A DNA stretch of 64,000 nt, taken from contig CAYPOT010000009.1 in NCBI GenBank assembly GCA_964412455.1, positions 5,179-69,178 of the forward strand. Direction: 5' to 3'. Under the pieces are notes generated by a model, which did no database searches, was not told the origin of the DNA, and saw nothing but the letters and a program-made list of their open reading frames with translations. The position numbers were made by a program, and so were the translations under genes. The DNA comes from an uncultured Nitrospiraceae bacterium (lineage in GTDB: Bacteria; Nitrospirota; UBA9217). Shown piece by piece: positions 6,289-34,049 of this stretch (positions are counted from its first letter, which is position 1; each line of letters starts with the position of its first letter).

Positions 6289-6534
6289 ATGAAAACGCTG
6301 ATGAGCGAGAGGGGTCAGGTGGTGATCCCGAAAAAGATCCGGGAGACCATTCACCTCCATAAAGGCGACGAACTGGAGATCGAGGTGCGCGATGAGACGA
6401 TCGTGCTGAAGCCGCTTCGCAGGTTCAAGGCCAAAAAATGGCAGGATTACGCCGGAATCGGTGAAGGCATCGTGGCTGCCCATCTCAAGGACAAGAAGAA
6501 GGAAAAAGCCGATGAAGATGCTTATTCTCGATAG
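6289..6534 (+). CDS. AbrB/SpoVT-family antitoxin (VapB/MazE-like)
   Basis: N-terminal SERGQVVIPKKIRETIHLHKGDELEIEV swapped-hairpin motif. Overlaps the downstream PIN gene. Confidence 0.8.
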   Translation: MKTLMSERGQVVIPKKIRETIHLHKGDELEIEVRDETIVLKPLRRFKAKKWQDYAGIGEGIVAAHLKDKKKEKADEDAYSR

Positions 6535-6931
6535 CTACGCACTGCTCTGTCTTTTCGATAAAAAGCGCAGGACGGAGAAGGAAGCGATAATGTCCTATCT
6601 TGAGGATGCGGGCAAAGGCAAGGCGAAGCTTTATATCAGCAAGATCAACGAAGGTGAAGTGTTTTATAAGCTCTATAAGTATTTCGGCGCCGAGATCGCG
6701 ACCGGATTCAGGGCAGACCTCAAGCGGGGAATGTTCCCCCTGCATGTCGTGCCCGTGAATGATAAACGAATAGACGAAGCGTCCGTGATTAAGGCGAAAT
6801 ATCCGGTATCCTACGCCGACGCATTTTGCATAGAACTTGCCAGGGACATGAACCTGCCTGTGGTGACAGGTGATCCGGAATTCGAGGCTGTGAAGGACCT
6901 GATAAAGCTACAGCCGCTTGCGGAACAGTAG
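6512..6931 (+). CDS. PIN-domain toxin (VapC-like)
   Basis: MKMLILDSYAL (first acidic residue) ... EGEV ... YADAFCIELA ... VTGDPEF, a typical PIN acidic-residue pattern. Start taken at ATG 6512, overlapping the antitoxin. Confidence 0.75.
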   Translation: MKMLILDSYALLCLFDKKRRTEKEAIMSYLEDAGKGKAKLYISKINEGEVFYKLYKYFGAEIATGFRADLKRGMFPLHVVPVNDKRIDEASVIKAKYPVSYADAFCIELARDMNLPVVTGDPEFEAVKDLIKLQPLAEQ

Positions 6932-6950
6932 CTCCTATGCGGACTTTCCG

Positions 6951-7046
6951 CACGGCGAGATCGTGAAGAAGTCCGATGAGAAGGAATTGGCCGATGTGCT
7001 GGTGAGGGAAGTGGAAGATTTAGTTCGGCAAAAAAATAAAAGGTAA
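6951..7046 (+). pseudogene. Remnant of a diverged ispG 3' end (31 codons plus stop)
   Basis: HGEIVKKSDEKELADVLVREVEDLVRQKNKR* parallels the native ispG C-terminus HGEIVKRFDEKELADVLVREVEKMV (5147-5225). Confidence 0.85.
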
Positions 7047-7115
7047 GATCGTATTTCGTTTGGTGTCTCTTACATTGATAAAATGCACCAATGTTGTTTA
7101 AGAGAGATTTCAATT

Positions 7116-8435: not shown

Positions 8436-8451
8436 CCGCACCTTTTAATTT

Positions 8452-9660
8452 ATGGAAAAGAAAAAAGATATTTCGCATTTTGATTTGCTTGATTGGAATT
8501 TTACTAGAGAAGATTCGAGACTCTACTTGCACAATTTCTGTTGGTATCCTTCAAGATTCATCCCAATAATCCCAGCCCACTTAATTCAAGCCCTAAGCAA
8601 GACCAATGAAACTGTGCTGGATCCGTTTTGCGGAATAGGGACTACGTTAGTCGAGGCTTTGAAGCAGAGGCGAAATGCAATTGGCGTTGATTTAAATCCA
8701 ATCGCATGCTTTGTCTCTAAAACTAAAGGAAAAATATTGACAGGTCATAAAGTAAACCTGTCTCTAATTGAAGGCTTGTTAGAAAACCTGGCGCCGTTGA
8801 GTGGTGATGATCTATTCACAAAAAAACGCACAGGTAGAGGTCATTATAATTTACGGGAGAAGTCAATCCCAAATTACGCTGTCAATGTGGAATGGTTTCA
8901 TCCCGAAACTTTAAAAATGCTTTCGCATATATACTATTCTGTCGAAGATCTTCCGAGAGGACTTACGAGGGATATATGCAAAATATTTTTTATTTCAATT
9001 CTCATGCAGTCCTCCGGGCACGATTTGAATAAGCCATACACTTATTATGCAGACAATGTGAAGCCTAAAAAAGAAAAATTGATTAAAGACGCCTACAAAC
9101 TATATGTGCAAAAATTGGATAAATTTTTATGTGAATATAAGCTCATAGAGTTACCCGAGAAAAACAGGCTGGATTTTGCCGTATACAACGAAGATGCGAG
9201 AGGGTTAGAAGGTTTGGTGGATAAAAAAGTTGACCTTATAGTTACTTCGCCTCCGTATTTAAATGTTACTGACTATACAACTGGCTTTAGGTTAGCTCAT
9301 CTGTGGTATAGCTTTCAAAAGGATATGCGTATTGAGGACATTAAAAGAAGAGAAATTGGTGCTCGATACAGGCGGAAGTCACGTAACAGTTTAAATGAAT
9401 ATGTCGGGGATATGCAGTCAGTCCTTTGCAAAATGGACAGCGTTTTAAAGACCAATGGGTATCTTTGCTTGATTCTTGGTGAATCACAAAAATACTCCAA
9501 GATTGTGAATAAGATAATAATGGACTTTATGTCGAACGAATTGCGGTTAGAATATATTGATTCTTTTAGTCGTGAGATAATAAAAAAATTCTTCATTCAT
9601 CCAAATGGTGGGGGTGTCAGTACAGAAGAAATTATTATTTACAGAAAAAAAAGAAAGTGA
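8452..9660 (+). CDS. DNA methyltransferase (N6-A or N4-C type, SPPY catalytic motif)
   Basis: AdoMet motif VLDPFCGIGTT (about 8620-8646) and catalytic VTSPPYLNVTDY (9244-9258). Motif I precedes motif IV by about 200 aa. Confidence 0.8.
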   Translation: MEKKKDISHFDLLDWNFTREDSRLYLHNFCWYPSRFIPIIPAHLIQALSKTNETVLDPFCGIGTTLVEALKQRRNAIGVDLNPIACFVSKTKGKILTGHKVNLSLIEGLLENLAPLSGDDLFTKKRTGRGHYNLREKSIPNYAVNVEWFHPETLKMLSHIYYSVEDLPRGLTRDICKIFFISILMQSSGHDLNKPYTYYADNVKPKKEKLIKDAYKLYVQKLDKFLCEYKLIELPEKNRLDFAVYNEDARGLEGLVDKKVDLIVTSPPYLNVTDYTTGFRLAHLWYSFQKDMRIEDIKRREIGARYRRKSRNSLNEYVGDMQSVLCKMDSVLKTNGYLCLILGESQKYSKIVNKIIMDFMSNELRLEYIDSFSREIIKKFFIHPNGGGVSTEEIIIYRKKRK

Positions 9661-10766
9661 GGTGTGTCTGCGCTATGGAAAATCACATCGTCATGATGCC
9701 TAATATGATAATACCATATGGCTACGAAATAGTGCCAATTATGGCTTATCCTGCTGGTTTTATCTACAGATTTAGATTTGATGAGGAATGGCTTTCAGAT
9801 AGGATAAAAGCCGATGTGTCTTCATTGTCAGCGAAAAAGGGTTATATCGTTTTCAGAGATCCAGAAAGCGCTACGTTTTACCCCATAAGGCATATCACAA
9901 TCAAGGTGGCGCAAAGAATAGGTAAATACTATTATTTTGAATATGAATTAAATGAAATATTTGACTTTGATTCTAACGAAACATGGAGGACAAAGCAAAT
10001 AACTCAATTTAATGACTCTTTTAAGAGTTTTCATGAATCAGAGTTTAAAGACAACATTCCTGGTAAAGATATGAAGCCCCTCGTATTTTTGACTAATTTT
10101 GCACCAACCATAAATAATGAACATGTCCAATTTACAAATCCATTGGAAAATGAGTTGGAGCGATGGGGAAATATAATTTCAATTATTAAAAATATAAAGT
10201 TTTATGAAAACGTAGAATTTATAAAAATCCTTGATATAGTGCCAATGAAAAAGCGAGACGAGGAAGTGCAAGTTAAAGAGAATTATTTATTTGTACAAGA
10301 AGACGGCGATTATAAGTTGAGGATATTTCAGCTTAAGCCTAAAGGATCGGTAGAAAGGATCGAACCGAAAGATATTGAAGTAAGATCAGACGACAAATAT
10401 ATTAGCGTCATAAGAAATAAACAACGCGCAGTAGGGAAGTATGATGTGCTAAGTTTCGTTTTCCGCGTGCATGCCGGCAGTGGAGGCCAGAGAAGTTATT
10501 TAGATGTTCTACATGCTCCCAAAACAGAAGCAGCCCAGTACATTGCGCCGACACTGTATCTTCCAGTAGCTATTCAAGGAAAAAGAAAGCTAATGGTTAT
10601 AAGAATTTTATTTGCCTTTGTCTTAGTCTCATTCTATCTTTTTCCTGAGGCTATAAGTTTCATATCTGATCACAGGATTGTGAAGGATTTTGCTATGGTC
10701 CTCTTCACTATTTCTGTGATAGATATTCTGAAAGAAATACGGGACCTGTTTAAGGCGAATAGATAA
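9657..10766 (+). CDS. Hypothetical protein with C-terminal double transmembrane anchor
   Basis: 369-aa ORF (alternative ATG at 9675). Overlaps the upstream stop by 4 nt and the downstream start by 1 nt. C-terminus has LMVIRILFAFVLVSFYLF and FAMVLFTISVIDIL hydrophobic helices. No family recognised. Confidence 0.6.
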   Translation: MRCVCAMENHIVMMPNMIIPYGYEIVPIMAYPAGFIYRFRFDEEWLSDRIKADVSSLSAKKGYIVFRDPESATFYPIRHITIKVAQRIGKYYYFEYELNEIFDFDSNETWRTKQITQFNDSFKSFHESEFKDNIPGKDMKPLVFLTNFAPTINNEHVQFTNPLENELERWGNIISIIKNIKFYENVEFIKILDIVPMKKRDEEVQVKENYLFVQEDGDYKLRIFQLKPKGSVERIEPKDIEVRSDDKYISVIRNKQRAVGKYDVLSFVFRVHAGSGGQRSYLDVLHAPKTEAAQYIAPTLYLPVAIQGKRKLMVIRILFAFVLVSFYLFPEAISFISDHRIVKDFAMVLFTISVIDILKEIRDLFKANR

Positions 10767-12907
10767 TGGTTATCGTTGGCCTAAACCTTGGTTCAACAGA
10801 ATTTAATAAGAAATTACACGACGGAGGCATCTGTATTGTTGTTGATGGTAAAGTAAAATTCGCAGTGGCTGAAGAGCGTATTTCGCGCAGAAAGCGCTCA
10901 GGCGGATTCAGGGAATCACTGGACTATGCTCTTTCTTGTTTGAATTTAGATAGGAGTAATATCGATCTTGTTGTTTATTCAAGCTGTTGTGAGAGTATTA
11001 ACAATAGCATTAACATCGCAGAATTACAGAATATAAAATCAATTCCCTGTGACCATCATCTATCTCACGCTTTAAGTGTGTATCTGACATCTCCTTATGA
11101 AAAGGCACTTATTGCCGTTTTAGACGCAGGAGGAAATCTTCTCGGTAATGACAACCATAGTGACTGGTGGCTTCATTCCCGAGAGCAGCAATCATACTAT
11201 GTCGCAGAAGGGAACAATGTCACGCTAATTGATAGAGATTTTATCTTACCTGAAGCAGCAGGCATAGGGGAAATATATCGTGCCTTTACATATTATCTTG
11301 GGTGGGAATCTTCTCGATTTGCAGGCAAGACCATGGCGCTTGCCGCATATGGAGATCCTGGTGCATTTAAAGGTAACAACATATTTGACTTGGACATAAA
11401 TGGGAACATACGCTCACATATAAAAAATAATCCGATAGAGCCCTTGTCTATGGTTGAGCAGTTACTCGATAGATATGGGAGAAAAAATGTGCCTCCTCGG
11501 AAAGATGGTCAACCGATTCTACAAGTGCATAGTGATCTTGCTCGCTGGATACAAAATGAAACGGAGGACATAGTAACCGCAAAACTTAACTATTTAATGC
11601 GTAAGACAGGCATTTCTAATCTTTGTTTGGCAGGAGGAGTTGCCTATAATTGCTCGATGGTTGGAAAGATAATGAATAATACTATGGCAAATAATGTTTT
11701 TCTCCAGCCGGCATCGGGTGATCAAGGTCAATGTCTTGGCAATGCCATGTTTGGATACACTCAAATTAGAAATGCTTGGATAAGAGTTAATCCATTCAAT
11801 CCATATCTAGGATGCGGTATTGAAATAAACCATGATACAATTCGAGGCGCGTTAAAGAGTAATAATCAGGTTACAATTAATGCCCCGCGTGATATAGCAG
11901 TAACAACTGCAAAATTACTCTCGCAAGGAGAAATAGTGGCGTGGTTCCAAGATCGGAGTGAATTCGGTCCTCGTGCCTTGGGCAATCGAAGTATTCTTGC
12001 AAACCCCTGTCTTTCGAAGAGTAAGGAGAAATTGAATTCAATAAAGGGTCGTGAAGACTTTATGCCTTTTGCTCCGACTGTTCTATACGAAAGTGCAAAA
12101 GACTATTTTGTGATTTCCGATGAATGTCCTTTTATGACTGCAGCAGTTAAGGTGCGCCCAAACGTCAGAGAAACAATACCGGCAGCTGTCCATGTGGACG
12201 GAACATCTAGAGTCCAAACATTGAGAAAAGAAAATAATCCGCTATTTTACGATTTGATACATGAATTCTACAAGTTGACAAAAGTGCCATTAATTATTAA
12301 TACTTCATTCAATGCAGCTGGTGAGCCTATTGTTGAAACACTTAATAATGCAATAGACACTTTTATGAAATTAGACATAAGATTTATGGTAGCTGGTTCG
12401 TTCCTTCTGGAAAAGCCATTGGTTAGAACATCTATGCCTAGTGTCAAAGATGCAGGTCGGTTGTTGGATATTGTATTTGGGGCGGATCTGATCGTCAACG
12501 AGACGGAATTAAGTGCGCTGCTTAGTGAGCGCTTTCCGGGAATTAAATCCTTTCCTAGAGATAAATTTTTGCTCAATGAAAAATTTATTAATTGGTTAAA
12601 AAACGGCAGAAAAACGACAACCATTAGGTATAAGAAAGTGGGTATAGATTTCCCAGTGGCGACATGTTTGCCGCTAATTCCGACAAAAGATTTTTCAAAA
12701 AATCGAGGTGAAGCGCCAGTTGGCTTTTTGAAAATAAGAAAATATATAATAAAAAAATATCGGGATCTTAATGAAACAGATGCTCGTAATGATGGATTTA
12801 AAACTCTAACGGAGCTAAGAAGTGTTCTTTTCGATATCTATGGTGCTATACAAGAAGATGACTATGTTTCTATATACTATGTTCAAATAAAAAATAATCC
12901 AAGTTAA
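10766..12907 (+). CDS. NodU/CmcH/TobZ-family carbamoyltransferase fused to a C-terminal ASCH-like domain
   Basis: DHHLSHA, LDAGGN, GGVAYNC, PASGDQG, FGPRALGNRSILANP, HVDGTSRVQT and INTSFNAAGEPIV blocks match the carbamoyltransferase family. The last ~115 aa (NWLKNGRKTTTIRYKK...DDYVSIYYV) resemble ASCH. Confidence 0.8.
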   Translation: MVIVGLNLGSTEFNKKLHDGGICIVVDGKVKFAVAEERISRRKRSGGFRESLDYALSCLNLDRSNIDLVVYSSCCESINNSINIAELQNIKSIPCDHHLSHALSVYLTSPYEKALIAVLDAGGNLLGNDNHSDWWLHSREQQSYYVAEGNNVTLIDRDFILPEAAGIGEIYRAFTYYLGWESSRFAGKTMALAAYGDPGAFKGNNIFDLDINGNIRSHIKNNPIEPLSMVEQLLDRYGRKNVPPRKDGQPILQVHSDLARWIQNETEDIVTAKLNYLMRKTGISNLCLAGGVAYNCSMVGKIMNNTMANNVFLQPASGDQGQCLGNAMFGYTQIRNAWIRVNPFNPYLGCGIEINHDTIRGALKSNNQVTINAPRDIAVTTAKLLSQGEIVAWFQDRSEFGPRALGNRSILANPCLSKSKEKLNSIKGREDFMPFAPTVLYESAKDYFVISDECPFMTAAVKVRPNVRETIPAAVHVDGTSRVQTLRKENNPLFYDLIHEFYKLTKVPLIINTSFNAAGEPIVETLNNAIDTFMKLDIRFMVAGSFLLEKPLVRTSMPSVKDAGRLLDIVFGADLIVNETELSALLSERFPGIKSFPRDKFLLNEKFINWLKNGRKTTTIRYKKVGIDFPVATCLPLIPTKDFSKNRGEAPVGFLKIRKYIIKKYRDLNETDARNDGFKTLTELRSVLFDIYGAIQEDDYVSIYYVQIKNNPS

Positions 12908-12939
12908 TTAGTTGCTCTGCTAAACGACAAAACACAAAA

Positions 12940-13782
12940 ATGACGCAATTTTTGAAAGACTTGCTGCGAAACTATGGGCTCTTGTACATAACGCTTACGC
13001 AGCTTTTGAGTGAGCGACCAGGAAACAAGTATGCTTCGCTGGACGAGTACTATCACAGTCTGGGCATGCAGACGCCTGATAACCCAATGTTTTACGTGCA
13101 TCCGAGCTCGGATGGCAAAACGCGCTACTTAGACGAGGGAGAGCACGATATTGAAGCGCGTGATGATGCGGGTAACAAGGTTGGAAAAGTAGTTGGCGTT
13201 TTGGAACTTCCGGAAGACGAATTCTATTTTTTTCAAGCATTCCGTCCTGGCATGTTCGATTTAGAAAAGGATCTTCCTTCATTTCTTTTTGAAATGGCAT
13301 TAATTTATGCTAATTCTCTATTTGAAAATTACATATCTAGCATTATTCGTCTCAGGTTTCAAAAACACCCAGAACTGATGGGTGTCAATAAACAAGTGAC
13401 TTATGGTCAAGTAATTAAGAGCAATTCGAAACAAGATGTCATCGAGCACCTGATTAATCGAGAAGTCCAACAATTGATGTATGAGCCTATCGGTGCAGTA
13501 TTGGAACGAATGCGAGCAAAATACGGATTTCGAGATCTAACCACGAAGTACGACGAGGAAATAATTTATCTGTCACTTATAAGAAATTGCGTTATGCATA
13601 ATTCTCGGAAGGTTGATTCTAAGCTTGCCACCAATAAACCTAAGCTAGTATTAGGCGAAAGATTGCCTGTTGAAAAGAGTCTCGTGGACACAGCAATTCA
13701 TACTTACCGAAAATTTTGCTATGAAGTTGATATCATGTTAGAAGCTATTGGATCACTCAAACAAACAAGTGAGCCTCTATGA
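12940..13782 (+). CDS. HEPN-motif protein (putative RNase effector)
   Basis: 280-aa ORF with an Rx4H motif, IRNCVMHN (13582-13599), in an alpha-helical C-terminal half. It is the last gene of the AT-rich operon. Confidence 0.5.
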   Translation: MTQFLKDLLRNYGLLYITLTQLLSERPGNKYASLDEYYHSLGMQTPDNPMFYVHPSSDGKTRYLDEGEHDIEARDDAGNKVGKVVGVLELPEDEFYFFQAFRPGMFDLEKDLPSFLFEMALIYANSLFENYISSIIRLRFQKHPELMGVNKQVTYGQVIKSNSKQDVIEHLINREVQQLMYEPIGAVLERMRAKYGFRDLTTKYDEEIIYLSLIRNCVMHNSRKVDSKLATNKPKLVLGERLPVEKSLVDTAIHTYRKFCYEVDIMLEAIGSLKQTSEPL

Positions 13783-23483: not shown

Positions 23484-24272
23484 ATGAGTGTGTCCAGTAA
23501 AATAGGGCTCCGGATCAAAGAGCTGCGGGAAAAGGCCGATATGAGCCAGGAGTCATTGGCGCAGAAGATGAAGATGTCCCGCCCTGCCATAACGCAGATC
23601 GAGAAAGGTACGAGAAAGGTCTCTGCCGAAGAACTGGTGAACTTTTCGCAAATGTTCCACGTACCTGTTGATGGCATTTTGAATCAGGGAAAAGAGCCGG
23701 AAGTCTTTCTTCAGGAGGAAAGGGCTGCAAAGGCGGCCAAGCCGCAGATGCGTATCAGCGTTCCGCAGAAGAACCTTCAAAAGTTCAAGGAGGTGCTGTT
23801 GTACATCCTGAACAAGGTGGGCGCAAAGGAGAACATCGGCGAGACCGTCGTCTACAAGCTGCTCTACTTCATAGATTTCGATTTCTACGAGAAATATGAG
23901 GACCAGCTGGTCGGCGCCACGTACATCAAGAACAAATATGGTCCTACACCGGTCGAGTTTGCTAAGATCGTCGAGAAGATGATCAAGGACGGTGAGATCG
24001 AGAAGGTCAAGAGCGAATACTTCAAGCTCCAGCAGACCAAGTACCTGCCCCGCCGGAAGCCGGACCTCACGAAGCTCCAGGCGACCGAGATCGAGGTGAT
24101 CGACGACGTGCTGAACCGGCTCTCGGAAATGAACGCCAACCAGATCAGCGCGTACTCGCACAGCGATGTTCCCTGGATGTCGACGAAGGACGGCGAAACC
24201 ATCGATTACGAATCGGTCTTTTACCGCACGCCGCCCTATTCCGTGCGGGCCTACACGGATGAGAACGGATGA
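23484..24272 (+). CDS. XRE-HTH / Panacea (DUF4065, SocA-like) domain antitoxin
   Basis: N-terminal LRIKELREKADMSQESLAQKMKMSRPAITQIEKG HTH. C-terminal VVYKLLYFIDFDFYEKYEDQLVGATYIKNKYGPTP resembles the DUF4065/Panacea core. Confidence 0.7.
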   Translation: MSVSSKIGLRIKELREKADMSQESLAQKMKMSRPAITQIEKGTRKVSAEELVNFSQMFHVPVDGILNQGKEPEVFLQEERAAKAAKPQMRISVPQKNLQKFKEVLLYILNKVGAKENIGETVVYKLLYFIDFDFYEKYEDQLVGATYIKNKYGPTPVEFAKIVEKMIKDGEIEKVKSEYFKLQQTKYLPRRKPDLTKLQATEIEVIDDVLNRLSEMNANQISAYSHSDVPWMSTKDGETIDYESVFYRTPPYSVRAYTDENG

Positions 24273-24784
24273 GCCGATCGTTCTACAGTGAATTCGACGG
24301 GACGCTGTTTGAAAAGATCACTCATGTCCCGGAGTTCGAGAAAGATCTAAAAAAGCTCTCCAAGCGATTCTCTTCGCTCGAAAAGGACCTGCAGACCTTC
24401 ATCAAGGTCGCGATGCATCTATTTCACAAGCAGAAGATCGACAGCAATGCGATCTTTCATATATCCGATCTCGGGATCAAGTCTCCGAATATATACAAGG
24501 CCAAGAAGTTTGCGTGCCGGGCGTTGAAGGGCAAAGGAGCGCAATCGGGAATCAGGGTTATTTATGCATATCATGAGGAAGCGGATTGGGTAGAGTTTGT
24601 CGAGATTTATTATAAGGGCGATAAGGAGAGCGAGGGCAGGGAGAGGATAGCTCGAATATATGGTAAACCTCGACAGGTAGGCGGACCGCTTGCGAGCCGC
24701 AAGGCCTTGAGAGAATCGCTCCGCGCCAAAGGAAAAGCGCCGTCCGAAGTCGTGATCGCATCGAGAAAACAGGAGAGGGATTAG
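24269..24784 (+). CDS. RelE/ParE-superfamily toxin (HigB-like)
   Basis: Overlaps the antitoxin stop by 4 nt. LKGKGAQSGIRVIYAYHEEADWVEFVEIYYKGDKE matches the K(S)GGxRVIY...IYxKxxKE toxin pattern. Confidence 0.65.
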   Translation: MSRSFYSEFDGTLFEKITHVPEFEKDLKKLSKRFSSLEKDLQTFIKVAMHLFHKQKIDSNAIFHISDLGIKSPNIYKAKKFACRALKGKGAQSGIRVIYAYHEEADWVEFVEIYYKGDKESEGRERIARIYGKPRQVGGPLASRKALRESLRAKGKAPSEVVIASRKQERD

Positions 24785-25339: not shown

Positions 25340-25504
25340 ATGGCAAACCAAGCGAAAAAGACAGAGCACTCAGGATCGAAGAAAGGTTGCGGCTCATACT
25401 GGGGACGAAAGAAGGACGCAAAGACAGAAAGCAACCGCAAGCGCCGCGAAGACGGCAAGAGATTGATTCGAGAGACAGCGAGAGTATATGAACCGAAGAA
25501 ATAA
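25340..25504 (+). CDS. Possible small basic protein (54 aa)
   Basis: ATG 25340 to TAA 25502-25504, absent from the ORF track because it is under 60 aa. MANQAKKTEHSGSKKGCGSYWGRKKDAK... No family recognised. Confidence 0.2.
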   Translation: MANQAKKTEHSGSKKGCGSYWGRKKDAKTESNRKRREDGKRLIRETARVYEPKK

Positions 25505-25751
25505 ATCCAGACCACAACGCACCGCTGATGCTCTTTGCCAGAAACACAAGGTCAGCGTCACGGGGAAATCCCATGACGTTGTACTCCATGCCGATACAGA
25601 AGACGGCGGCTTCTGGGTCGAGTGCCCCTCGCTTCCCGGCTGCGACTCGCAGGGCGACGCGGTAGAGGATGCGCTAAAGATGGTGAAGGACGCCATCAAG
25701 GGACATCTGGAGGTCGCGGCAGAGCGGAAGAAGAAGAGGGCGGCCGCGTAA
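25488..25751 (+). CDS. HicB-like antitoxin (UPF0150 fold)
   Basis: VVLHADTEDGGFWVECPSLPGCDSQGDAVEDALKMVKDAIKGHLE is the classic HicB N-terminal domain pattern. The true start may be internal. Confidence 0.7.
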   Translation: MNRRNKSRPQRTADALCQKHKVSVTGKSHDVVLHADTEDGGFWVECPSLPGCDSQGDAVEDALKMVKDAIKGHLEVAAERKKKRAAA

Positions 25752-26387
25752 ATGCCCTATATTTTCATGGACGAGTCAGGCGACCTTGGATTTGATTTCA
25801 CCAAGAAAGGGACTTCGCAATATTTTCTGATTACGTTCCTGTTCAGCAACAATAAGAGGGACATTGACAAATGCGTCAAAAAGGTCCATGCGGGCTTGCG
25901 CAAACGGTATAAGAGAGTTGGCGTACTGCATGCATATAAGGATGAACCGGTAACCAAAAAGCGATTACTTTCGCTACTTGCGGAGAAGGATTGCACTATC
26001 ATGGCAATCGTGCTGAACAAGAGAAAGGTCTACACAAACCTTCAGGATGAGAAGCCGGTCCTTTACAATTACGTGACCAATATCTTGCTCGACAGGATAT
26101 TCTCAAAAAAACTGCTGCGCGGCAACGAACCAATCGAGATCATCGCCTCGCGTAAGGACACGAGCAGGTTCCTGAATTTGAACTTCAAATCCTACCTGCA
26201 GTCGCAATTGGCCAAGAATCACAATGTGACGGTAAGCGTTACGATCAAGACCCCGGCGGAAGAGAAAGCACTTCAGGCGGTGGATTTCGTGAGCTGGGCG
26301 ATATTCAGGAAGTATGAGTCGAAGGACGAAGAGTACTACAGGATCATCAAAGGGCTGATCGTCGAAGAGAAACCGTTGTTCCCCTAG
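25752..26387 (+). CDS. DUF3800-family protein
   Basis: Starts MPYIFMDESGDLGF and ends ...ALQAVDFVSWAIFRKYE, the two DUF3800 hallmark blocks. Its ATG directly abuts the HicB stop codon. Confidence 0.7.
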   Translation: MPYIFMDESGDLGFDFTKKGTSQYFLITFLFSNNKRDIDKCVKKVHAGLRKRYKRVGVLHAYKDEPVTKKRLLSLLAEKDCTIMAIVLNKRKVYTNLQDEKPVLYNYVTNILLDRIFSKKLLRGNEPIEIIASRKDTSRFLNLNFKSYLQSQLAKNHNVTVSVTIKTPAEEKALQAVDFVSWAIFRKYESKDEEYYRIIKGLIVEEKPLFP

Positions 26388-26484
26388 AAACAACAAAGCC
26401 CCGTTCGCTAGTTTCGAGGCGCCCTGCGGTACCCCACGAACGAGGACTTACTTGTTGCTATTATGATAATGCAGGGGCGGAAGT

Positions 26485-26692
26485 ATGTCAAGGGTTTTGA
26501 GCAGTTTAATTCTCGGTCCGAGTGCAGCATAAAGGCTGGCGCGGCAGTCATGTGAAGCTGATGAAACCGGGTAATCCCGTCATTTTGTCGATCCCCCTGC
26601 ACAAGGGGAAACCGGTCAAGAAAGGCTTGCTGGTTGCTCAGGTCAAGAAGGCGGGGATGACGGTGGAGGAGTTCTTAAAATTGTACAAATAA
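26485..26692 (+). pseudogene. HicA-like toxin, apparently frameshifted
   Basis: Frame ending at 26692 reads FSVRVQHKGWRGSHVKLMKPGNPVILSIPLHKGKPVKKGLLVAQVKKAGMTVEEF (HicA GSHxxL core). The N-terminal ATG (26485) is in a different frame and stops at 26530-26532. Confidence 0.5.
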
Positions 26693-26734: not shown

Positions 26735-27682
26735 TTGTTGATGACAGTTGGATTCTTACGAGCGAATGAAAATATGCCGATAGTAACTGATTCTAGACTG
26801 AACTCTGAAGCAGATATTAAATTCGAGACGTATCGCGGTTACCTCGATGCTGTCAGAAGGCACATATATCAAACATACGGATCTTGGAAGCACTTCGGAC
26901 GGACCTGCATTGATCAAACGCTACATATGCAAGGGATAGGTGTCTTTGATCAACCCTGGGTAGAACGGTTTCTCAAAATAGCATGGAATACTGAATTCAT
27001 TTTGTCTGACGGAGCCAAAGATGTAGAATTGGTCCGCATCAATAATCAGTGGTCACCGATTCAGGCGTATTATGCAATATATGCATGCGGGGAAGCCTTG
27101 GCCTATGTTCTTGACGGAAATAAAGCAGACGGCCATCAGAAAACTCTAACGAAGCTGACAGATTATTTTGAAAAAAACAGTCTCTCACCATGGAATCTAT
27201 CCTACGAGGGGCCACGAGGAAGGACTTGCCAGGACCACAAGCCTCATAATTTTTCTGCTGACATAAGAATACCGCATAACTTGCAGAGAAGCGACGTGAC
27301 ACCGCAGGAGTTGATTGCAAAGTGCCTTAAGGCAGAGCATGCCAACCGTGTTGATGATACATGGCAAAAAAGAAGGTGTCAGTTCAAATACAACTTCGAC
27401 CCGGGTCGGACCAGCCTATTGCACTTCATGTATAGACTCCGGATCAAATCCAACTACAAAGAGATTGATCTTTTCGTATCGCAGGCCCCGGCAGCTAAGA
27501 TCCTCAATTTCAACACATCTTTACAGTATATTTGTTTTTATACGCTTCTGTATATGGAGGTCGCGCTGGCCAGAAAATGTAAAAAGAGTTTTCTTCTTGC
27601 TCTGGGGGATAAGTATTTGACTGTGAATCCAAGAGCGCATAAATTAAAGCGTCGACTGGAATTCTATAATTCCCAGATATAA
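26735..27682 (+). CDS. Hypothetical protein (315 aa), first gene of the helicase cluster
   Basis: Long ORF in a lower-GC region, ending 40 nt upstream of the helicase gene. No family recognised. Confidence 0.55.
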   Translation: MLMTVGFLRANENMPIVTDSRLNSEADIKFETYRGYLDAVRRHIYQTYGSWKHFGRTCIDQTLHMQGIGVFDQPWVERFLKIAWNTEFILSDGAKDVELVRINNQWSPIQAYYAIYACGEALAYVLDGNKADGHQKTLTKLTDYFEKNSLSPWNLSYEGPRGRTCQDHKPHNFSADIRIPHNLQRSDVTPQELIAKCLKAEHANRVDDTWQKRRCQFKYNFDPGRTSLLHFMYRLRIKSNYKEIDLFVSQAPAAKILNFNTSLQYICFYTLLYMEVALARKCKKSFLLALGDKYLTVNPRAHKLKRRLEFYNSQI

Positions 27683-27722
27683 ATCTACCCGAGGTCAACG
27701 TCCTTCAAAGAGCACATTAACC

Positions 27723-30569
27723 ATGTCAAAGATGGACATCGCACGGAGCATTTCCGCATGTAACTGCTGGCAGGACTTCAAAGAAGCAATGCAGCCCTTG
27801 TCGAAGAAGGAAAAGGGTGACTGCTTTGAAGAACTGACCAAACAGTATTTGCTTATCGAGCCGAAGTATCAGACCCAGTTGCGTCACGTTTGGCGGCTCG
27901 AAGAAGTACCATCGAAGACCAGAAAGCATCTCAATCTCCCCGATTTAGATGAAGGGACCGACCTTGTAGCAGAAACAGTAGATGGAGGTTATTGGGCGAT
28001 CCAATCCAAGTATCGTGAAGACGAAACAACCTCCCTCACTCGCCGCGAACTCAGCACATTCACCGACCTGGCTTTCTCCATCTGTAAGAACATCGAACTT
28101 GGCCTGATATGTACCACCGCGGACCGCTTCAGCCACAAGCTGCGGCTTCATGGAGAGCGGCTCTCCTTCTGTGCCGGCGATGTCTGGTCAGCTCTTGATA
28201 AAGAGTTTTTCGGTCGTCTGCACGCTGTCCTTAAAGGCAGGGAAGTAAAGCTACGCCCCAAACATCCACGGGACCATCAAAAAAGCGCCATTCAGAACGC
28301 CTTTGATCATTTCATCCAGAATGGCAATGACCGCGGCAAGCTGATCATGCCATGCGGAACTGGGAAAAGTCTGGCCGCATACTGGATAGCCGAAAAACTG
28401 AACGCCCATTCGATCCTCATTGCGGTCCCGAGCCTTTCCCTTATCAAACAGACTCTGGAGGTCTGGGCGCGGGAATCGGTTGCTAATGGTCGGGCCATTC
28501 ACTGGATGGCTGTCTGCAGCGATGAAACCGTCGCGAAAAGCGAGAAAAAGGATATTGCAGTGCTGACCCAGGATCTTGGCGTCCTTGTGCATACAGACCC
28601 GGTGGAGATAGCCGACTGGCTCAGGAAAAAGGAGAAGGGAACGACGGTCGTATTCAGCACGTACCAAAGCGGAAAGGCCATAGCCGAAGCGGCCAAGATA
28701 GCGAAAGTCACCTTTGACATCGCGATCCTCGATGAAGCGCATAAAACAGTAGGCAAAAAGCAGGGATTGTTCAGTTATCTTCTGCATGATGAGAATATCC
28801 CGATCCGGAAGCGGATATTCATGACTGCGACTGAAAGGCGCTACCGGGGGCAGAGCGACGACATTGTCAGTATGGATGACATATCCCTGTACGGAGAGAC
28901 CTTTGAGCTGCTGAGTTTTAAGAGAGCGCTCGAATACAAAGAACCTATCCTGAGCGATTATAAGATCGTGACCGTAGCCGTTTCGCGACAAGAGATAGCC
29001 GACATGGTTAAGCGCAATGTCTTCGTAAGGCCGGACAAGGGTGAATGGGACGAGGATGTTGAAGCGGAATCGCTTGCGGCTCTGGTTGCCCTGCGAAAGG
29101 CCATGAACTCATATCCCATCCGTCACGCAATCTCCTACCACAGCAGTATTGCCCGCGCAAAGATGTTTAAAACAAATCAAGAGCAGTTCTCAGATACATT
29201 TTCTGAATATAACCGTATAAACACCTACCATGTTTCCGGAAAAACGCCCACTGCAGTCCGTGCCCGAGAGATCAGAGATTTTGCAAGCGCAGACCGCGCA
29301 CTTATAACGAATGCTCGTTGTATGGTCGAGGGAGTGGATATTCCTAATGTTGACTGTGTTCTTTTTGCCGATCCGAAGAACAGTATAGTGGATATTGTGC
29401 AAGCGGTTGGGCGTGCATTGAGACCGGCAATAGGAAAAGACTATGGCTATGTGATTGTTCCTGTCCTTCTGGAAAGAAACGACGGTACGGATGTATCAAT
29501 GCCCCAGAGCGCATACGCTACGATCATCACAGTCCTGCGAGCGCTGGCCGAGAATGACGAGAGGATTATAGAATATTTCAGAGGGATTTCGCAGGGAGCA
29601 CGGCGCGAGGGCAAGGAAAATGTATTTGAGATCAACATTCCAGAAAGTTTGCATATCAACCTGCCGGATTTCGTCCAATCTGTAGAACTTCAAGTCTGGT
29701 CTCGCATTGCACGTCTGGCATGGCGGCCGTTTGAAGAGGCCCGCGCTTTCGCCCGGTCGTTGGCACTAAGAAACCAAGATGATTGGAAATCCTATTATAA
29801 AGGCTACTTGTCACGCATGTATAAAAAGCCAGTGGATATTCCTGCAGCTCCCAATGAAGTGTATAAGTACAATGGCTGGAAGAGTTGGGTAGACTGGTTA
29901 TGGATAGAAGGCCTCGCGCCAAGTGATTATGCATGGCGGTCGTTTGAAGATGCCCGTGCTTTTGTACATTCATTGGGGCTCAGAGGTATAAATGACTGGA
30001 GGCTTTATTGTACGGATAAGCTGCCAGATAAAGGTAGTAAACCAGCGGACATACACGCAGACCCATATAAAGTATATAAAGACAAGGGCTGGAAGAATTG
30101 GGGGGATTGGCTAGGGCTTGGCGCGGGAACTATTGAACCCAGAAAACAATTATATCGGTCGTTTGAAGAAGCTCGTTCTTTTGTGCGATCGTTGGGGCTC
30201 TCTGGCCAAACGGAATGGACTCTCTACTGTAAAGGTCAATTGCCCGGCAGGGATAAGAAGCCGGATGATATACACTCTAATCCCTATAATACTTATAATA
30301 ACATATGCTGGAAGAGCTGGGATGACTGGCTTGGAACGGAAACCATAGCACCACAAAATCGAGTATTTCGGCTTTTTGAGGAAGCCCGCACTTTTGCGCG
30401 TTCGTTGGGGCTTCCAAGCGAAAAAGAATGGCGTCTCTACTGTAAGGGTGAGTTACCTGGTAAGGGAAAGAAACCTGATGACATACCGTCTGCTCCATGG
30501 TTAACTTATAAGGACGATGGCTGGAAGAGTTGGGGTGACTGGCTTGGAACTAGACGCGTTAAGAAGTAA
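27723..30569 (+). CDS. Nuclease-helicase fusion: N-terminal restriction-endonuclease-like domain, SF2 DEAH helicase, four C-terminal tandem repeats
   Basis: N-terminus GTDLVAETVDGGYWAIQSKY (PD-(D/E)xK-like). Helicase motifs MPCGTGKS (I), LDEAHK (II), MTATE (III) and QAVGRALR (VI). C-terminal W-rich repeats. Confidence 0.8.
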   Translation: MSKMDIARSISACNCWQDFKEAMQPLSKKEKGDCFEELTKQYLLIEPKYQTQLRHVWRLEEVPSKTRKHLNLPDLDEGTDLVAETVDGGYWAIQSKYREDETTSLTRRELSTFTDLAFSICKNIELGLICTTADRFSHKLRLHGERLSFCAGDVWSALDKEFFGRLHAVLKGREVKLRPKHPRDHQKSAIQNAFDHFIQNGNDRGKLIMPCGTGKSLAAYWIAEKLNAHSILIAVPSLSLIKQTLEVWARESVANGRAIHWMAVCSDETVAKSEKKDIAVLTQDLGVLVHTDPVEIADWLRKKEKGTTVVFSTYQSGKAIAEAAKIAKVTFDIAILDEAHKTVGKKQGLFSYLLHDENIPIRKRIFMTATERRYRGQSDDIVSMDDISLYGETFELLSFKRALEYKEPILSDYKIVTVAVSRQEIADMVKRNVFVRPDKGEWDEDVEAESLAALVALRKAMNSYPIRHAISYHSSIARAKMFKTNQEQFSDTFSEYNRINTYHVSGKTPTAVRAREIRDFASADRALITNARCMVEGVDIPNVDCVLFADPKNSIVDIVQAVGRALRPAIGKDYGYVIVPVLLERNDGTDVSMPQSAYATIITVLRALAENDERIIEYFRGISQGARREGKENVFEINIPESLHINLPDFVQSVELQVWSRIARLAWRPFEEARAFARSLALRNQDDWKSYYKGYLSRMYKKPVDIPAAPNEVYKYNGWKSWVDWLWIEGLAPSDYAWRSFEDARAFVHSLGLRGINDWRLYCTDKLPDKGSKPADIHADPYKVYKDKGWKNWGDWLGLGAGTIEPRKQLYRSFEEARSFVRSLGLSGQTEWTLYCKGQLPGRDKKPDDIHSNPYNTYNNICWKSWDDWLGTETIAPQNRVFRLFEEARTFARSLGLPSEKEWRLYCKGELPGKGKKPDDIPSAPWLTYKDDGWKSWGDWLGTRRVKK
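29721..30566 (+). repeat. Four tandem ~70-codon coding repeats at the helicase C-terminus
   Basis: The unit W/F-R-x-FEEARxFxRSLGL-x5-W-x-YCKG-LPGKGKKPDDI-x3-P-x3-YK-x2-GWKSWGDWLG recurs four times. Confidence 0.85.
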
Positions 30570-30607
30570 TAGTAATATCAATAGACGAAAGGTTAAACAG
30601 ATACGAA

Positions 30608-31408
30608 ATGAAAATCGAAGGTAATGGGTTTTTGACCACTCTTTTGCCAGACATATCGCAGACGGTTCCCGGCGTCAATAAGGCTTTATTTTGCTTACTG
30701 CAAGATGTCATCAATTATGCAGAGAGCCTAAAAGAATCATTGCAGGTCGCCAAACAGGAAACAGATCAAGAAAAGCAGAAAATTATCGCGACAGTTACTT
30801 ACATTCGACTTTTAGAAGTCGTTGAAGCGGCGTTCATCCTTTCCGCTTATGGAATTAGAGAAGAGTTGCAGTCGCTATTTCGCATATTCTTAGACGCTTA
30901 TTTTGTGCATGCCAACTGCTGTAGCAGCCCAGAATTTATCCCTGCCTATATTCTTAGTGACGAACAGTCACGTCTTAAAATGCTTAATGTGGCGACGAAG
31001 TATGATAGCGAGATGTTCAAAGCGACAAAAGAATATGCAACAGCCGAATTGAAAAACCAACTTGAAAACAAGATACGCGAGGAAAAAATTGAAGCATTCA
31101 ACTCGTACCTCTATGCGAAAAATGTTAATTGCGAACAAATATACGATTCTCTATACAGGCTGATGAGCGCCTCAGTGCATACAACTCCCAGATGTTTAAG
31201 CAATTATATAGAAACTGACGAACATGGGGTCATATTGCAAGTCTTGCATGGCTCTAGGCCGGAAGACACCAACCACGCATTGTTTGATATGTCGTGGTTT
31301 TTCTTAAAGGCTATACGCGGGATCTGTGAATTGTTCCAGCTCCCCATGGGGACGTTAGATTGTTTTGACAAACGGATAAAGGAATATGAAACCGAAAGAA
31401 AAGATTGA
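30608..31408 (+). CDS. Hypothetical protein (266 aa), third gene of the helicase cluster
   Basis: Helical protein 38 nt downstream of the helicase. Contains YRLMSASVHTTP (an Rx6H spacing), possibly DUF5677-like from memory. Confidence 0.5.
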   Translation: MKIEGNGFLTTLLPDISQTVPGVNKALFCLLQDVINYAESLKESLQVAKQETDQEKQKIIATVTYIRLLEVVEAAFILSAYGIREELQSLFRIFLDAYFVHANCCSSPEFIPAYILSDEQSRLKMLNVATKYDSEMFKATKEYATAELKNQLENKIREEKIEAFNSYLYAKNVNCEQIYDSLYRLMSASVHTTPRCLSNYIETDEHGVILQVLHGSRPEDTNHALFDMSWFFLKAIRGICELFQLPMGTLDCFDKRIKEYETERKD

Positions 31409-31578
31409 GAATGAGAGTCGAATATTGAATGTAATTTCGTTCATGGTCAGCCGAAAATTAGGCGCGAACGGATCCTGTATTTATTGATTCATGATGCGGA
31501 CTGAAAGCACTTATACTGAACTAAAAATAAGCGGCAGGCCATCTGGCCTGCCTTTGTCGTCTTCCGCATGCGCATCGC

Positions 31579-31827
31579 TCAATGCACCGAGCACGATATG
31601 CAAAGGTCGTAGGAGCGCACGAGCATCTGGGCGAGGAGCTCGATGTCCCGGTCCTTTTTCCCTTCCCGGGCATACTGCTCGGCAAGCGCCATCAGGTCGT
31701 GCTGAATATTGGCATGGTTCTGGCTCGTGGGGATCACGCAGTCGCTCTTGACGATCCCGCCTTCCTTGTCGAACTCGTAGCAATGATATAAGATCCCCCG
31801 GAGTATGCCTTGATTCTCGTATTGCAA
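31579..31827 (-). pseudogene. Diverged duplicate of the [NiFe]-hydrogenase large-subunit 3' end
   Basis: ...GILYHCYEFDKEGGIVKSDCVIPTSQNHANIQHDLMALAEQYAREGKKDRDIELLAQMLVRSYDLCISCSVH parallels the C-terminus of 32775..34049. It has DLC instead of DPC and includes a copy of the terminator hairpin. Confidence 0.9.
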
Positions 31828-31943: not shown

Positions 31944-32276
31944 ATGATCAACCGATCAATTCTGGTAGTCAGGGCGAAAGAGCCGTTCGTGCAATGGATC
32001 AACTCCCTTCCCGATCCTGCTGGAGTCTCCCGGAAGCAGGTCGATCTCGATAATACAGCCTATCTTCTGCCGGAATACGCGTATGACGAAGAAAAAGAGG
32101 AGCTTCTCGCTCAGTTCTTCGATCTGATCTTTCAGGAACAATTGAGCGGCTGGTGGACTGATGAGAGTGGCTGGCCGCAGAAGCGGGACATTGCCATGTT
32201 CAACAAGTGGTTCGAAGTAGATTTTCATTCGGCAGTGCTCGATCTTGTTGATACGCCGCTGGAAGAGGACGAATAG
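31944..32276 (+). CDS. Hypothetical protein (110 aa)
   Basis: ORF between the duplicated hydrogenase 3' ends. No family recognised. Confidence 0.45.
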   Translation: MINRSILVVRAKEPFVQWINSLPDPAGVSRKQVDLDNTAYLLPEYAYDEEKEELLAQFFDLIFQEQLSGWWTDESGWPQKRDIAMFNKWFEVDFHSAVLDLVDTPLEEDE

Positions 32277-32315: not shown

Positions 32316-32690
32316 ATGAAAGTGAAAAAGATCAACATAGGCATCAAAGATCTAGCGGAAAGCTTGAAGGATTTTGCCGCGACGTGGAAAAAGTCGGAAT
32401 CCGGCAAGAAGACGAGGAAAGAGGAGGGCATTTACTTTGACTCCATCGATTCGATGCGGTCTGTGTTGACGAACAACCGGCTGCTTATCCTGAAAACGAT
32501 CCGGGACCGCAATCCGGGCTCCGTCTACGAGTTGGCAAAAATACTGGAACGGGACCTAAAAAACGTTAACCAGGACCTGAAGCTCCTAGCCGACATCGGC
32601 CTGGTTACTCTGGTGAAGACGGACGCCGATAAGAAGCGTGTTGTGCCCCATGTTGATTACGGTAAGATCATGCTTGAAATACCGGTGTAA
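32316..32690 (+). CDS. Winged-helix DNA-binding protein (MarR/ArsR-like)
   Basis: LLILKTIRDRNPGSVYELAKILERDLKNVNQDLKLLADIGLV is a wHTH pattern. Confidence 0.55.
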   Translation: MKVKKINIGIKDLAESLKDFAATWKKSESGKKTRKEEGIYFDSIDSMRSVLTNNRLLILKTIRDRNPGSVYELAKILERDLKNVNQDLKLLADIGLVTLVKTDADKKRVVPHVDYGKIMLEIPV

Positions 32691-32720
32691 TGACTTTCAT
32701 GGAAGCACTCATACTGAACT

Positions 32721-32750
32721 AAAAAAGAGGCAGGCCATGTGGCCTGCCTC
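32721..32750 (-). terminator. Rho-independent terminator of the hydrogenase operon
   Basis: GAGGCAGGCC-ATGT-GGCCTGCCTC hairpin, followed on the minus strand by a T-run (A6 on the plus strand). Confidence 0.7.
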
Positions 32751-32774
32751 TTCTGTTCATGTGATGTTTGACGC

Positions 32775-34049
32775 TCAATGCACAGAACATGATATGCAGG
32801 GGTCGTAGGACCTGACAAGCATCTGGGCGAGGAGTTCGATGTCCCTGTCCTTCTTGCCTTCCCGGGCATACTGCTCCGCCAGCGCCATCAGATCGTGCTG
32901 GATGTTGGCGTGGTTCTGGCTCGTGGGGATCACGCAGTCGCTTTTGACGATCCTGCCTTCCTTGTCGAACTCGTAGTAATGATATAAGATGCCCCGCGGT
33001 ACTTCTACCGCTCCGACGCCGATCCCTTCCCGCGGCACCACCTTCTGTCGTGGCTCCTGCCATGCCCCATCCAACATTCCGTTGATCAGGTCGATCGAGT
33101 CCATCACCACATGCACGCATTCCACTAACTGGGCGACATTGTTCATGAAGGGATTGTGGTTCACCGGCTTGAGCCCGAAGCTTAGGGAGAGCTCTTTCGC
33201 GGCAGGATGCAGGAAGGCGAAGTTGTTGTTCAGGCGGGCGAGCGCGCCGACTGCCAGCGACGACCGCGAGAGCTTGCTCCACTTGGACGTGGACTGTCCG
33301 ACCATATACTCGTTCGTCATCAACCGGTACTCGTGCTCTTTCCTGACCACGCCGTCCGTCGAGACCAGGTCTCCGCCGATGAAAGGATAACTCCCCTTGC
33401 CCTTGAGCGAAACGAATTCGGTCTCCCGCTTGAAGTCAGGAACAACAAATTGCCGGAACAGGTCCGCGGTGAGGGTGAGGTCATCCACGACATCCTGCAG
33501 GCGGTACTTGAACTTCACCAGTTCATTTTTTTCCGGCAGCATGGTGAACCCGCCGATCACGGTCCGCGTGGGATGCATCCTCCGGCCGCCGACGCAGTCG
33601 CACATATCGTTCGCGAGCAGCTTGATCTTGGCCGCGCGTTTTATTACATCGGGATGGGAATCGATGAGCGGGAACACGCTTCCGACGTTCAGGAAGTCCG
33701 GGGCAGCCAGGAAATACAGGTGCAGGATATGGCTCTGGAGCGTTTCCATGTGCTTCAGCAGGAGCCGCAGTTTCCCCGTTTGCTCCGTGGGAACGATGCC
33801 GAAGGCGTTCTCGACCGCCCGGATGCTGGCCAGCGTATGGCCGATGGAGCAGATGCCGCAGATCCTGCCGCAGATCCAGGGAGCGTTCTCCCATTTCTTC
33901 CCGACCAGCATCGCCTCGAAGAAGCGCGGCGTCTCCACGACCTCCCAGGTCGCGTCTTCGACCTTTCCGTCTTTGATGGAGATCTTGATGTTGCCGTGGC
34001 CTTCCACCCGGGTGAGGTGGCGTATGTCGATGGACTGCGATAGCTTCAT
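32775..34049 (-). CDS. Cytosolic [NiFe]-hydrogenase large (alpha) subunit, group 3
   Basis: N-terminal RICGICSIGH and C-terminal DPCISCSVH nickel-binding motifs. Confidence 0.9.
   Translation of the reverse strand: MKLSQSIDIRHLTRVEGHGNIKISIKDGKVEDATWEVVETPRFFEAMLVGKKWENAPWICGRICGICSIGHTLASIRAVENAFGIVPTEQTGKLRLLLKHMETLQSHILHLYFLAAPDFLNVGSVFPLIDSHPDVIKRAAKIKLLANDMCDCVGGRRMHPTRTVIGGFTMLPEKNELVKFKYRLQDVVDDLTLTADLFRQFVVPDFKRETEFVSLKGKGSYPFIGGDLVSTDGVVRKEHEYRLMTNEYMVGQSTSKWSKLSRSSLAVGALARLNNNFAFLHPAAKELSLSFGLKPVNHNPFMNNVAQLVECVHVVMDSIDLINGMLDGAWQEPRQKVVPREGIGVGAVEVPRGILYHYYEFDKEGRIVKSDCVIPTSQNHANIQHDLMALAEQYAREGKKDRDIELLAQMLVRSYDPCISCSVH

Follow-up and report, generated by a model that had tools for sequence, protein, structure and literature searches.

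Three adjacent genes, here termed A, B and C, occupy positions 26735–31408 of the window, a 64,000-nucleotide stretch of contig CAYPOT010000009.1 from an uncultured Nitrospiraceae bacterium, to which all positions below refer unless another locus is named. The analysis revealed that these genes are a defense-island mosaic of independent modules, which constitutes neither a named nor a new multi-gene system. Probably, B is a stand-alone nuclease-translocase derived from Type ISP restriction enzymes, A is a HEPN protein of the kind linked to restriction-modification (RM) systems, and C is a solo DUF5677 protein, all three residing side by side in one islet. What is new at the locus is gene B, in which the nuclease-motor chassis of a Type ISP enzyme carries a repeat array in place of the methyltransferase and target-recognition domains, together with A as a further member of the RM-linked HEPN kind; C is an already known DUF.

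All three genes are real, with 63, more than 4,800 and 45 homologue clusters for A, B and C, respectively, and all are located on the forward strand. Gene A (26774–27682) encodes a HEPN-fold protein of 302 amino acids with no Pfam family, gene B (27723–30569) a single-chain protein of 948 amino acids composed of an Mrr-type nuclease, a superfamily 2 (SF2) DEAH translocase and four INT_rpt-like repeats, and gene C (30608–31408) a DUF5677 protein of 266 amino acids. The start of A could alternatively be placed at TTG 26735 (315 amino acids) or ATG 26741 (313 amino acids). Gene calls on identical public contigs favor ATG 26741 or ATG 26774, a shortening that the homologue alignment bears out, and the residues of A are numbered here from ATG 26774. 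For B, a call of 945 amino acids from ATG 27732 also exists. The coordinates given in an earlier sequence-only reading of this DNA for three co-directional genes were reproduced exactly, with intergenic gaps of exactly 40 nucleotides between A and B and 38 nucleotides between B and C.

The lower G–C content noticed in the same reading was also recovered, being 0.44–0.52 over 26–32 kb and 0.56–0.63 on both flanks, where housekeeping genes of about 60% G–C are found. The stretch is part of a variable defense/toxin-antitoxin (TA) islet of about 9 kb (approximately 23.4–32.7 kb), bounded by the adenine phosphoribosyltransferase gene (apt) on one side and the NiFe hydrogenase operon on the other. 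No terminator-like sites were predicted on the forward strand between A, B and C, and the first one after C is a hairpin at 31533–31552 (a consensus match only), which belongs to a duplicated 3′ end of a hydrogenase gene. Since no terminator-like site precedes position 31533, the three genes are probably co-transcribed. Neither tRNA genes, Rfam families nor DNA tandem repeats were found in the region.

The gene order proved not to be conserved. The B loci analyzed were the 80 best of at least 462 relatives, each from a different species and with up to 10 kb of flanking sequence, and hidden Markov models of the A and C families, when run on the six-frame open reading frames (ORFs) of these loci, detected no relative of either gene (0/80). 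In the same way, none of the 22 distinct A loci with at least 3 kb of flank, out of 57 collected, was found to contain a B-type or DUF5677 protein, and no relative of A or B was present in the five distinct contexts of C. All of the contigs that encode the identical C protein, A–B–C arrangement included, come from one and the same locus in a single organism. PADLOC-DB v2 assigned no multi-gene system to the region, and A and C remained without a match in it.

The closest relative of the locus (L009/L010) shares 81–88% DNA identity in the flanks and has its islet at the same position between apt and the hydrogenase genes. In L009, B is intact (1229 amino acids, 80% identity) and stands without A or C; thus, B is not dependent on either of them. 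Upstream of B, only the first 13 codons of a HicB-like ORF remain in L009. It is most likely that a block comprising the HicB-like, DUF3800, HicA and A genes was deleted there; an insertion of this block in the window was considered and rejected, since the L009 junction retains the 13 HicB-like codons, which makes a deletion in L009 likelier. In the slot of C, L009 carries an unrelated gene for a protein of 306 amino acids with no Pfam match (L009 13607–14527), and the position downstream of B is therefore a swap site for different genes. The proposal of a defense module made from the sequence alone is thus upheld in part: the neighborhood is indeed of defense and TA flavor, with a Panacea-type TA pair, HicB-like and HicA genes and a DUF3800 gene, whereas a single three-gene unit is not supported by the 80 B, 22 A and five C loci or by the lone B of L009. 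For genome scans, the lesson is that tight spacing together with co-orientation, or co-transcription, within a defense islet is no evidence of a joint system.

Pfam searches and repeat mapping agree with the domain order proposed earlier for the 948-amino-acid protein, namely a PD-(D/E)xK-like nuclease, an SF2 DEAH core and four C-terminal repeats. The nuclease domain of B (27855–28142; amino acids 45–140) matches Mrr_cat_2 with an E-value of 2e-14, and its putative catalytic residues are D76, D80, Q94 and K96, with E36 of motif I just upstream of the matched stretch. These five residues align with E38, D74, D78, Q92 and K94 of LlaGI, for which mutagenesis showed that D74, D78 and K94 are essential for cleavage, while changes of E38 and Q92 lead to a partial loss (PMC2790908). 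The SF2 helicase-like motor follows at 28263–29456 (amino acids 181–578), with ResIII/DEAD matches at amino acids 181–370 and Helicase_C at 480–567; motifs I, II, III and VI are represented by GTGKS (G214, K215), DEAH (337–340), TAT (368–370) and QxxGRxxR (560–567). In a comparison of 35 B homologues, all of these motor motifs as well as D76, D80, Q94 and K96 are invariant, and E36 is at least 90% conserved.

The best match of B among PDB sequences is LlaBIII (4xqk; E-value, 2e-65), with amino acids 28–616 of B aligned to 30–649 of the 1578 amino acids of LlaBIII, so that the homology covers the Mrr nuclease and both RecA lobes; LlaGI ranks second (5ffj; 8e-54), followed by RadD (1e-4). Similarly, the best PADLOC model is REase_MTase_IIG (Type IIG/ISP; 4e-99), which is matched only at positions 15–643 of 1646. 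Other PADLOC matches concern single-protein restriction-enzyme models and generic helicase parts of PbeA, Cas3 and DpdF, those to mREase_IV are weak (1e-6) and limited to the helicase C-lobe, and the NCBIfam matches, all far under the cut-offs, include RadD, XPB, UvrB, and restriction and CRISPR helicases. The homology ends at amino acid 616 of B, which corresponds to amino acid 649 of LlaBIII, and B has no counterpart of the coupler, methyltransferase or target-recognition domains. Pfam detects no methylase domain in B, the ORF list and Pfam reveal no methylase gene within the islet, and no N6_Mtase domain is listed for the 120 best homologues of B, which display the same chassis followed by repeats flagged as INT_rpt/ExoI_C. 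Judged by its residues, B has the nuclease and motor of a Type ISP enzyme in a catalytically intact-looking state; B itself falls outside the Type ISP family, because the defining coupler, methyltransferase and target-recognition domains are missing.

In place of these domains, B carries an array of four units of about 71 amino acids (29718–30548; amino acids 666–942), ending at amino acids 727, 798, 871 and 942, with the consensus FxEARxFVxxLxLKxxxEWxxYCKGxLPxKGxxPxDIPxxPxxTYKDxGWKGxGDWLG. At the DNA level, the array matches itself (29718–30337 versus 29931–30550) with an offset of 213 nucleotides and 66% identity. According to an approximate motif count in B and 34 homologues, the number of units per protein ranges from about 4 to 14, and the 80%-identical orthologue at the same chromosomal site has eight repeats versus four here. 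A weak match to PF14882 (INT_rpt) was obtained for 25 out of 37 sampled units of the family (best E-value, 5e-4); none of the units of the window's B matches Pfam at E ≤ 1, and unit 1 matches no family at all. The homologues of B bear precomputed flags for PF14882 and PF26016, both marked "faint". A profile search of PDB sequences gave no solved structure related to the repeat unit.

A related architecture was found in a Rhodococcus qingshengii homologue on plasmid RQCS_2 (WP_064689746.1; L145 5992–9597), a protein of 1201 amino acids in which the Mrr nuclease and SF2 motor are followed by eight HA repeats (PF03457). It shares 34% identity with B over amino acids 19–658, and a NACHT protein is encoded beside it. 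Matches were present in 765 plasmid records, 409 of them from Streptomyces. Thus, at least three different modules can follow the nuclease-motor chassis at the C-terminus, namely the methyltransferase with a target-recognition domain, HA repeats and INT_rpt repeats. As cited in PMC12191111, the HA domain was reported to be DNA-binding (Mills et al. 2013). By its position and by analogy to the HA repeats, the INT_rpt array may likewise engage DNA; hhalign detected no relation between the INT_rpt and HA units. As a separate observation, the repeat region of B (amino acids 669–948) matches hypothetical proteins of jumbo phages with 28–29% identity, among them gp307 of Xanthomonas jumbo phage Xoo-sp13 (L146 2665–3702) and a protein of the uncultured 485-kb phage LR745208. 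Large phage genomes are thus another place where the repeat module circulates.

The homologues of B, 945–1656 amino acids in length, carry public names such as "DEAD/DEAH box helicase family protein", "integrase repeat-containing protein" and "restriction endonuclease". An alignment-based scan of 185,579 species representatives, one genome per species, confirmed at least 462 relatives among at least 599 pattern matches, other nuclease-motor branches included; a scan of the genome collection with the single B sequence had given no confirmed relative before the alignment-based repeat succeeded. The 80 best loci span many phyla and have Fic proteins, TA genes and integrases as neighbors, and even the most frequent neighbor family, Fic, is present in only 6 of the 80 loci. 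Because of this patchy distribution, the location in a low-GC islet beside TA genes and the different repeat number (4 versus 8) of two orthologues, B is regarded as an accessory gene of variable regions and not as a housekeeping gene.

Gene A has no match in Pfam, PADLOC, NCBIfam or PHROGs, and no meaningful match was obtained in a profile search of PDB sequences. The structural model of A is all-alpha except for two short strands. A is confidently assigned a HEPN fold, a four-helix up-and-down bundle with a large insertion within it, and represents an undescribed clade. A profile search (E ≤ 1e-3) placed A in a wider superfamily of proteins of about 320 amino acids (854 clusters at 50% identity). 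Conserved in 124 members of this superfamily are Y23, W71, E74, W93, Y99, Y100, H121, P139, R221, R223, N227, Y228, E262 and R294. The motif R221-x-R223-x3-N227-Y228 (YRLRxxxNY; 27434–27457) has no histidine inside, H121 (27134–27136; 98% conserved) lies upstream of it, and a canonical Rx4-6H motif is not present in A. Sub-threshold matches to Pfam HEPN families were recorded for 3 out of 10 distant superfamily members, in one of which RLRIRSNY lies in the region that pairs with the C-terminal portion of the HEPN model; the close members gave only noise at E ≤ 10. No P-loop or ABC domain was detected in A by Pfam, NCBIfam or PADLOC.

The only recurrent neighbors of A are subunits of Type I RM systems. 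Of the 22 distinct loci, 8 have genes of such systems at most 5 kb away from A, versus 0 out of 63 B control loci (523 kb of flank; Fisher p = 7e-6), a difference that could be inflated in favor of the A loci, since the RM reference proteins came from two of them. A is directly followed by HsdR in L001 and L103 and by HsdS-HsdR in L006 and L104. Its other neighbors include GmrSD, a Type III-like Res, a Type IIG methylase of the Eco57I/MmeI type, an OLD-family nuclease, Schlafen/AlbA_2 and AbiJ, and about 12 of the 22 loci have no restriction gene within 5 kb. In the window, A stands 40 nucleotides upstream of the Type ISP-like motor-nuclease B and not beside hsdMSR. According to the literature, certain HEPN clades are linked to RM systems, for which a PrrC-type "second line of defence" model was put forward (Anantharaman et al. 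2013, PMC3710099), and the context of A matches this published pattern. With A, the RM-linked HEPN genes gain a clade that was so far unannotated.

Two side observations concern the surroundings of A homologues. A small protein family with no Pfam match is encoded immediately upstream of A homologues in L007 (2628–3203), L107 (6728–7108) and L109 (236–505), and its L007 member contains an R-x4-H string (RHSFQH). This may therefore be another HEPN-like gene that pairs with A at some of its loci; the three loci are possibly non-independent, as L007 and L107/L115 share flanking sequence. The genes for proteins of about 200 amino acids beside A homologues were also considered as C-like partners, and this was rejected, since all-against-all BLAST gave no shared family. 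In addition, FRG-domain proteins (PF08867) are encoded beside an A homologue in one locus and beside a C homologue in another (L002 11754–13175 and L014 8866–9966), which hints that they are drawn from the same islet gene pool as A and C.

Gene C is a member of DUF5677 (PF18928; 73.5 bits versus a cut-off of 27.1; E-value, 3e-20), and this model is matched by all 41 aligned members of the C family. The Rx6H spacing pointed out earlier in the 266-amino-acid protein is present (RLMSASVH; R184-x6-H191; 31157–31180), and both R184 and H191 are invariant in the 41 members. No match of C was found in PADLOC or PHROGs, the NCBIfam matches are at chance level only, the family members have no match to the HEPN clan at Pfam E ≤ 10, and PDB searches gave neither a meaningful profile match nor a significant Foldseek match. 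The fold of C is ambiguous, the Rx6H motif notwithstanding, and C is possibly a divergent HEPN protein. A relationship between A and C was considered and rejected (hhalign probability, 1.4%). The relatives of C stand solo in five distinct contexts, with a LysR regulator, FRG and group II introns, MazE/PemK, and ParDE and TIR as neighbors, and none was found in viral contigs. DUF5677 has been described in a preprint as enriched near defense islands marked by serine recombinases (PMC12632615). Taken together, C is a solo gene typical of TA/defense islets, with no demonstrable tie to B.

If the reading of independent modules is correct, the repeat array would load B on DNA or select its target, and the motor, once loaded, would use ATP hydrolysis to translocate along double-stranded DNA (dsDNA) in the manner of Type ISP enzymes, after which foreign DNA would be cut by the Mrr nuclease. 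As there is no methylase, the discrimination between self and non-self by B must be methylase-independent. It would perhaps be Type IV-like, with a modified base or another feature of the invader being read, and host DNA might be spared by way of modified bases, as for SauUSI or END nucleases. By analogy to PrrC, A may act as a second-line effector of the RNase type and may monitor B, whereas C would be an independent toxin-like or abortive infection (Abi)-like gene.

Several points weigh against this account. The DNA-binding role proposed for the INT_rpt array leans on the HA repeats, with which the array has no detectable kinship, and a methylase-less translocating nuclease needs a means of sparing host DNA, for which the route named above is a conjecture. 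A, lacking the canonical Rx4-6H histidine, may be non-catalytic, and its association with RM genes is subject to the possible inflation mentioned above. A DUF5677 ORF tested in Enterococcus fell outside the five ORFs that give phage defense (PMC12632615). A literature search returned no functional study of the A, B-type (including integrase repeat with helicase, PF14882 and Mrr_cat_2) or DUF5677 families. Finally, the tight spacing and probable co-transcription may leave room for lineage-specific cooperation of A, B and C.

Such cooperation would take its fullest form in a lineage-specific A–B–C defense operon, with the helicase-nuclease as the component that senses foreign DNA or processes it and with the all-alpha, HEPN-like proteins on either side as effectors or regulators. 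The short gaps, the shared direction, the lack of a terminator-like site until after C, the HEPN fold in A and the invariant Rx6H in C are all consistent with this idea. The recurrence of the arrangement on every contig with the identical C protein also speaks for it, but these contigs are one locus of one organism, the partners are absent from the 80 B, 22 A and five C loci, the 80%-identical B is intact without A or C, and PADLOC finds no system; we therefore consider such an operon unlikely. A coupling of A and B alone, with C as a bystander, is likelier than such an operon; we hold it to be possible and not probable. Here, A would be a PrrC-like HEPN back-up silenced by B and freed for RNA cleavage when phage blocks the latter. 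A-family genes are located immediately upstream of HsdR or HsdS-HsdR in the four loci mentioned above, B is a single-chain analogue of such a restriction motor/nuclease subunit, and both RM-linked HEPN clades and the PrrC-type model have been described (PMC3710099). The recurrent position of A beside restriction motor subunits therefore makes a "restriction enzyme plus HEPN back-up" pairing plausible. On the other hand, no A relative accompanies B at the other 80 loci examined, B persists without A in L009, A has neither the ABC ATPase domain that regulates PrrC nor the canonical motif histidine, and about 12 of the 22 A loci have no restriction gene within 5 kb.

It could also be argued that B is a helicase-nuclease of DNA repair or recombination with a housekeeping-type role, its TA neighbors being incidental. 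RadD, XPB and UvrB are among the sub-cut-off NCBIfam matches, B has no methylase or recognized specificity domain, and nuclease-helicases that lack a methylase are active in repair, too. This role is improbable in view of the distance between the LlaBIII match (2e-65) and that of RadD (1e-4), and of the patchy occurrence of the family, the at least 462 confirmed relatives (some from other branches) being spread over 185,579 species representatives. The low-GC variable islet, the fast change in repeat copy number and the Fic, TA and integrase neighbors also argue against it.

The reading of independent modules can be extended to a bolder proposal, which is at present rather doubtful. The B family may consist of widespread, unrecognized, methyltransferase-independent, ATP-driven restriction enzymes, whose INT_rpt array reads invader DNA (e.g., hypermodified bases) and whose repeat copy number retunes the specificity, while A would be a general back-up that docks on HsdR or B and fires when these are blocked. 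If B-type proteins do restrict without a methylase, they would form a large overlooked branch of restriction enzymes, and the Type ISP nuclease-motor would be a reusable chassis. A would be a compact candidate for probing the "restriction enzyme guarded by an RNase" concept beyond PrrC.

The block upstream of A (25488–26692, forward strand), which is present or absent together with A, consists of a HicB-like gene (25488–25751; 87 amino acids; Pfam), a DUF3800 gene (25752–26387; 211 amino acids; Pfam) and hicA (26522–26692; 56 amino acids; HicA_toxin gene call on the identical contig L147), so that DUF3800 sits inside a hicAB-type pair. Further upstream, at 23484–24784, the gene of an antitoxin of 262 amino acids with helix-turn-helix (HTH) and SocA/Panacea domains overlaps that of a partner of 171 amino acids, for which none of Pfam, PADLOC and NCBIfam gives a family. 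The two genes are probably a TA pair of the Panacea type with an undescribed toxin, and the pair is kept in L009 with about 83% amino acid identity. At the other end of the islet, a direct repeat of 300 bp (31502–31800 versus 32700–32996; 86% identity) duplicates the 3′ end, terminator hairpin included, of the gene for the NiFe hydrogenase large subunit (32775–34049, reverse strand). The two copies flank an ORF of 110 amino acids (31944–32276) and an HVO_A0114-type HTH gene (32316–32690). The duplication is absent from the syntenic L009 and looks like an insertion scar at the 3′ end of the hydrogenase gene.

A second island was observed at 6461–13782 (35–41% G–C), directly upstream of the prolyl-tRNA synthetase gene. 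It encodes a PIN protein, an HD-domain protein (450 amino acids), an N6/N4 DNA methylase (402 amino acids), a carbamoyltransferase-ASCH fusion (713 amino acids) and two proteins of unknown nature (369 and 280 amino acids), and it could be a cluster for nucleic-acid modification or defense.

When compared with known systems, C is a clear member of DUF5677, from which it differs in nothing. A resembles the RM-linked HEPN proteins of the PrrC paradigm (PMC3710099) in its fold and in the presence of a Type I RM operon around or near it at 8 of 22 loci. This embedding in hsdMSR, with 0/63 in the controls, is also known for PrrC and RloC, while the A of the window is beside B instead. Unlike PrrC and RloC, A has no N-terminal ABC/Rad50-like NTPase, and it differs from known HEPN proteins in having no significant sequence match to the Pfam HEPN families and a large insertion in the bundle. 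Its motif variant is the same as that of the AF0298 (2hsb) and AbiV families, in which the arginine is kept, the histidine is lost and a second conserved histidine is N-terminal (PMC3710099).

B shares with the Type ISP enzymes LlaBIII and LlaGI the single polypeptide and the N-terminal Mrr nuclease (E / D-x3-D / Q-x-K) followed by an SF2 dsDNA translocase. The coupler, methyltransferase and target-recognition domains define Type ISP enzymes (PMC4666363), whereas the homology of B stops at the start of the coupler, and four INT_rpt-like repeats stand in place of the gamma-class N6-adenine methyltransferase and the target-recognition domain. Without these two, B is therefore incapable of host DNA methylation and of site reading in the Type ISP style. 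The actinobacterial "DEAD/DEAH box helicase" proteins with HA repeats (WP_064689746.1), which are also uncharacterized, differ from B in the repeat type (PF03457 HA versus PF14882-like INT_rpt) and agree with it in having the chassis, tandem helical repeats of about 65–70 amino acids and no methylase. SauUSI and END nucleases (PMC12191111) have PLD/HxK nucleases versus the Mrr PD-(D/E)xK of B, and other sensor domains; by analogy, they resemble B in that a nuclease (with a motor in SauUSI) is fused to a C-terminal substrate-selecting module and works with no cognate methylase.

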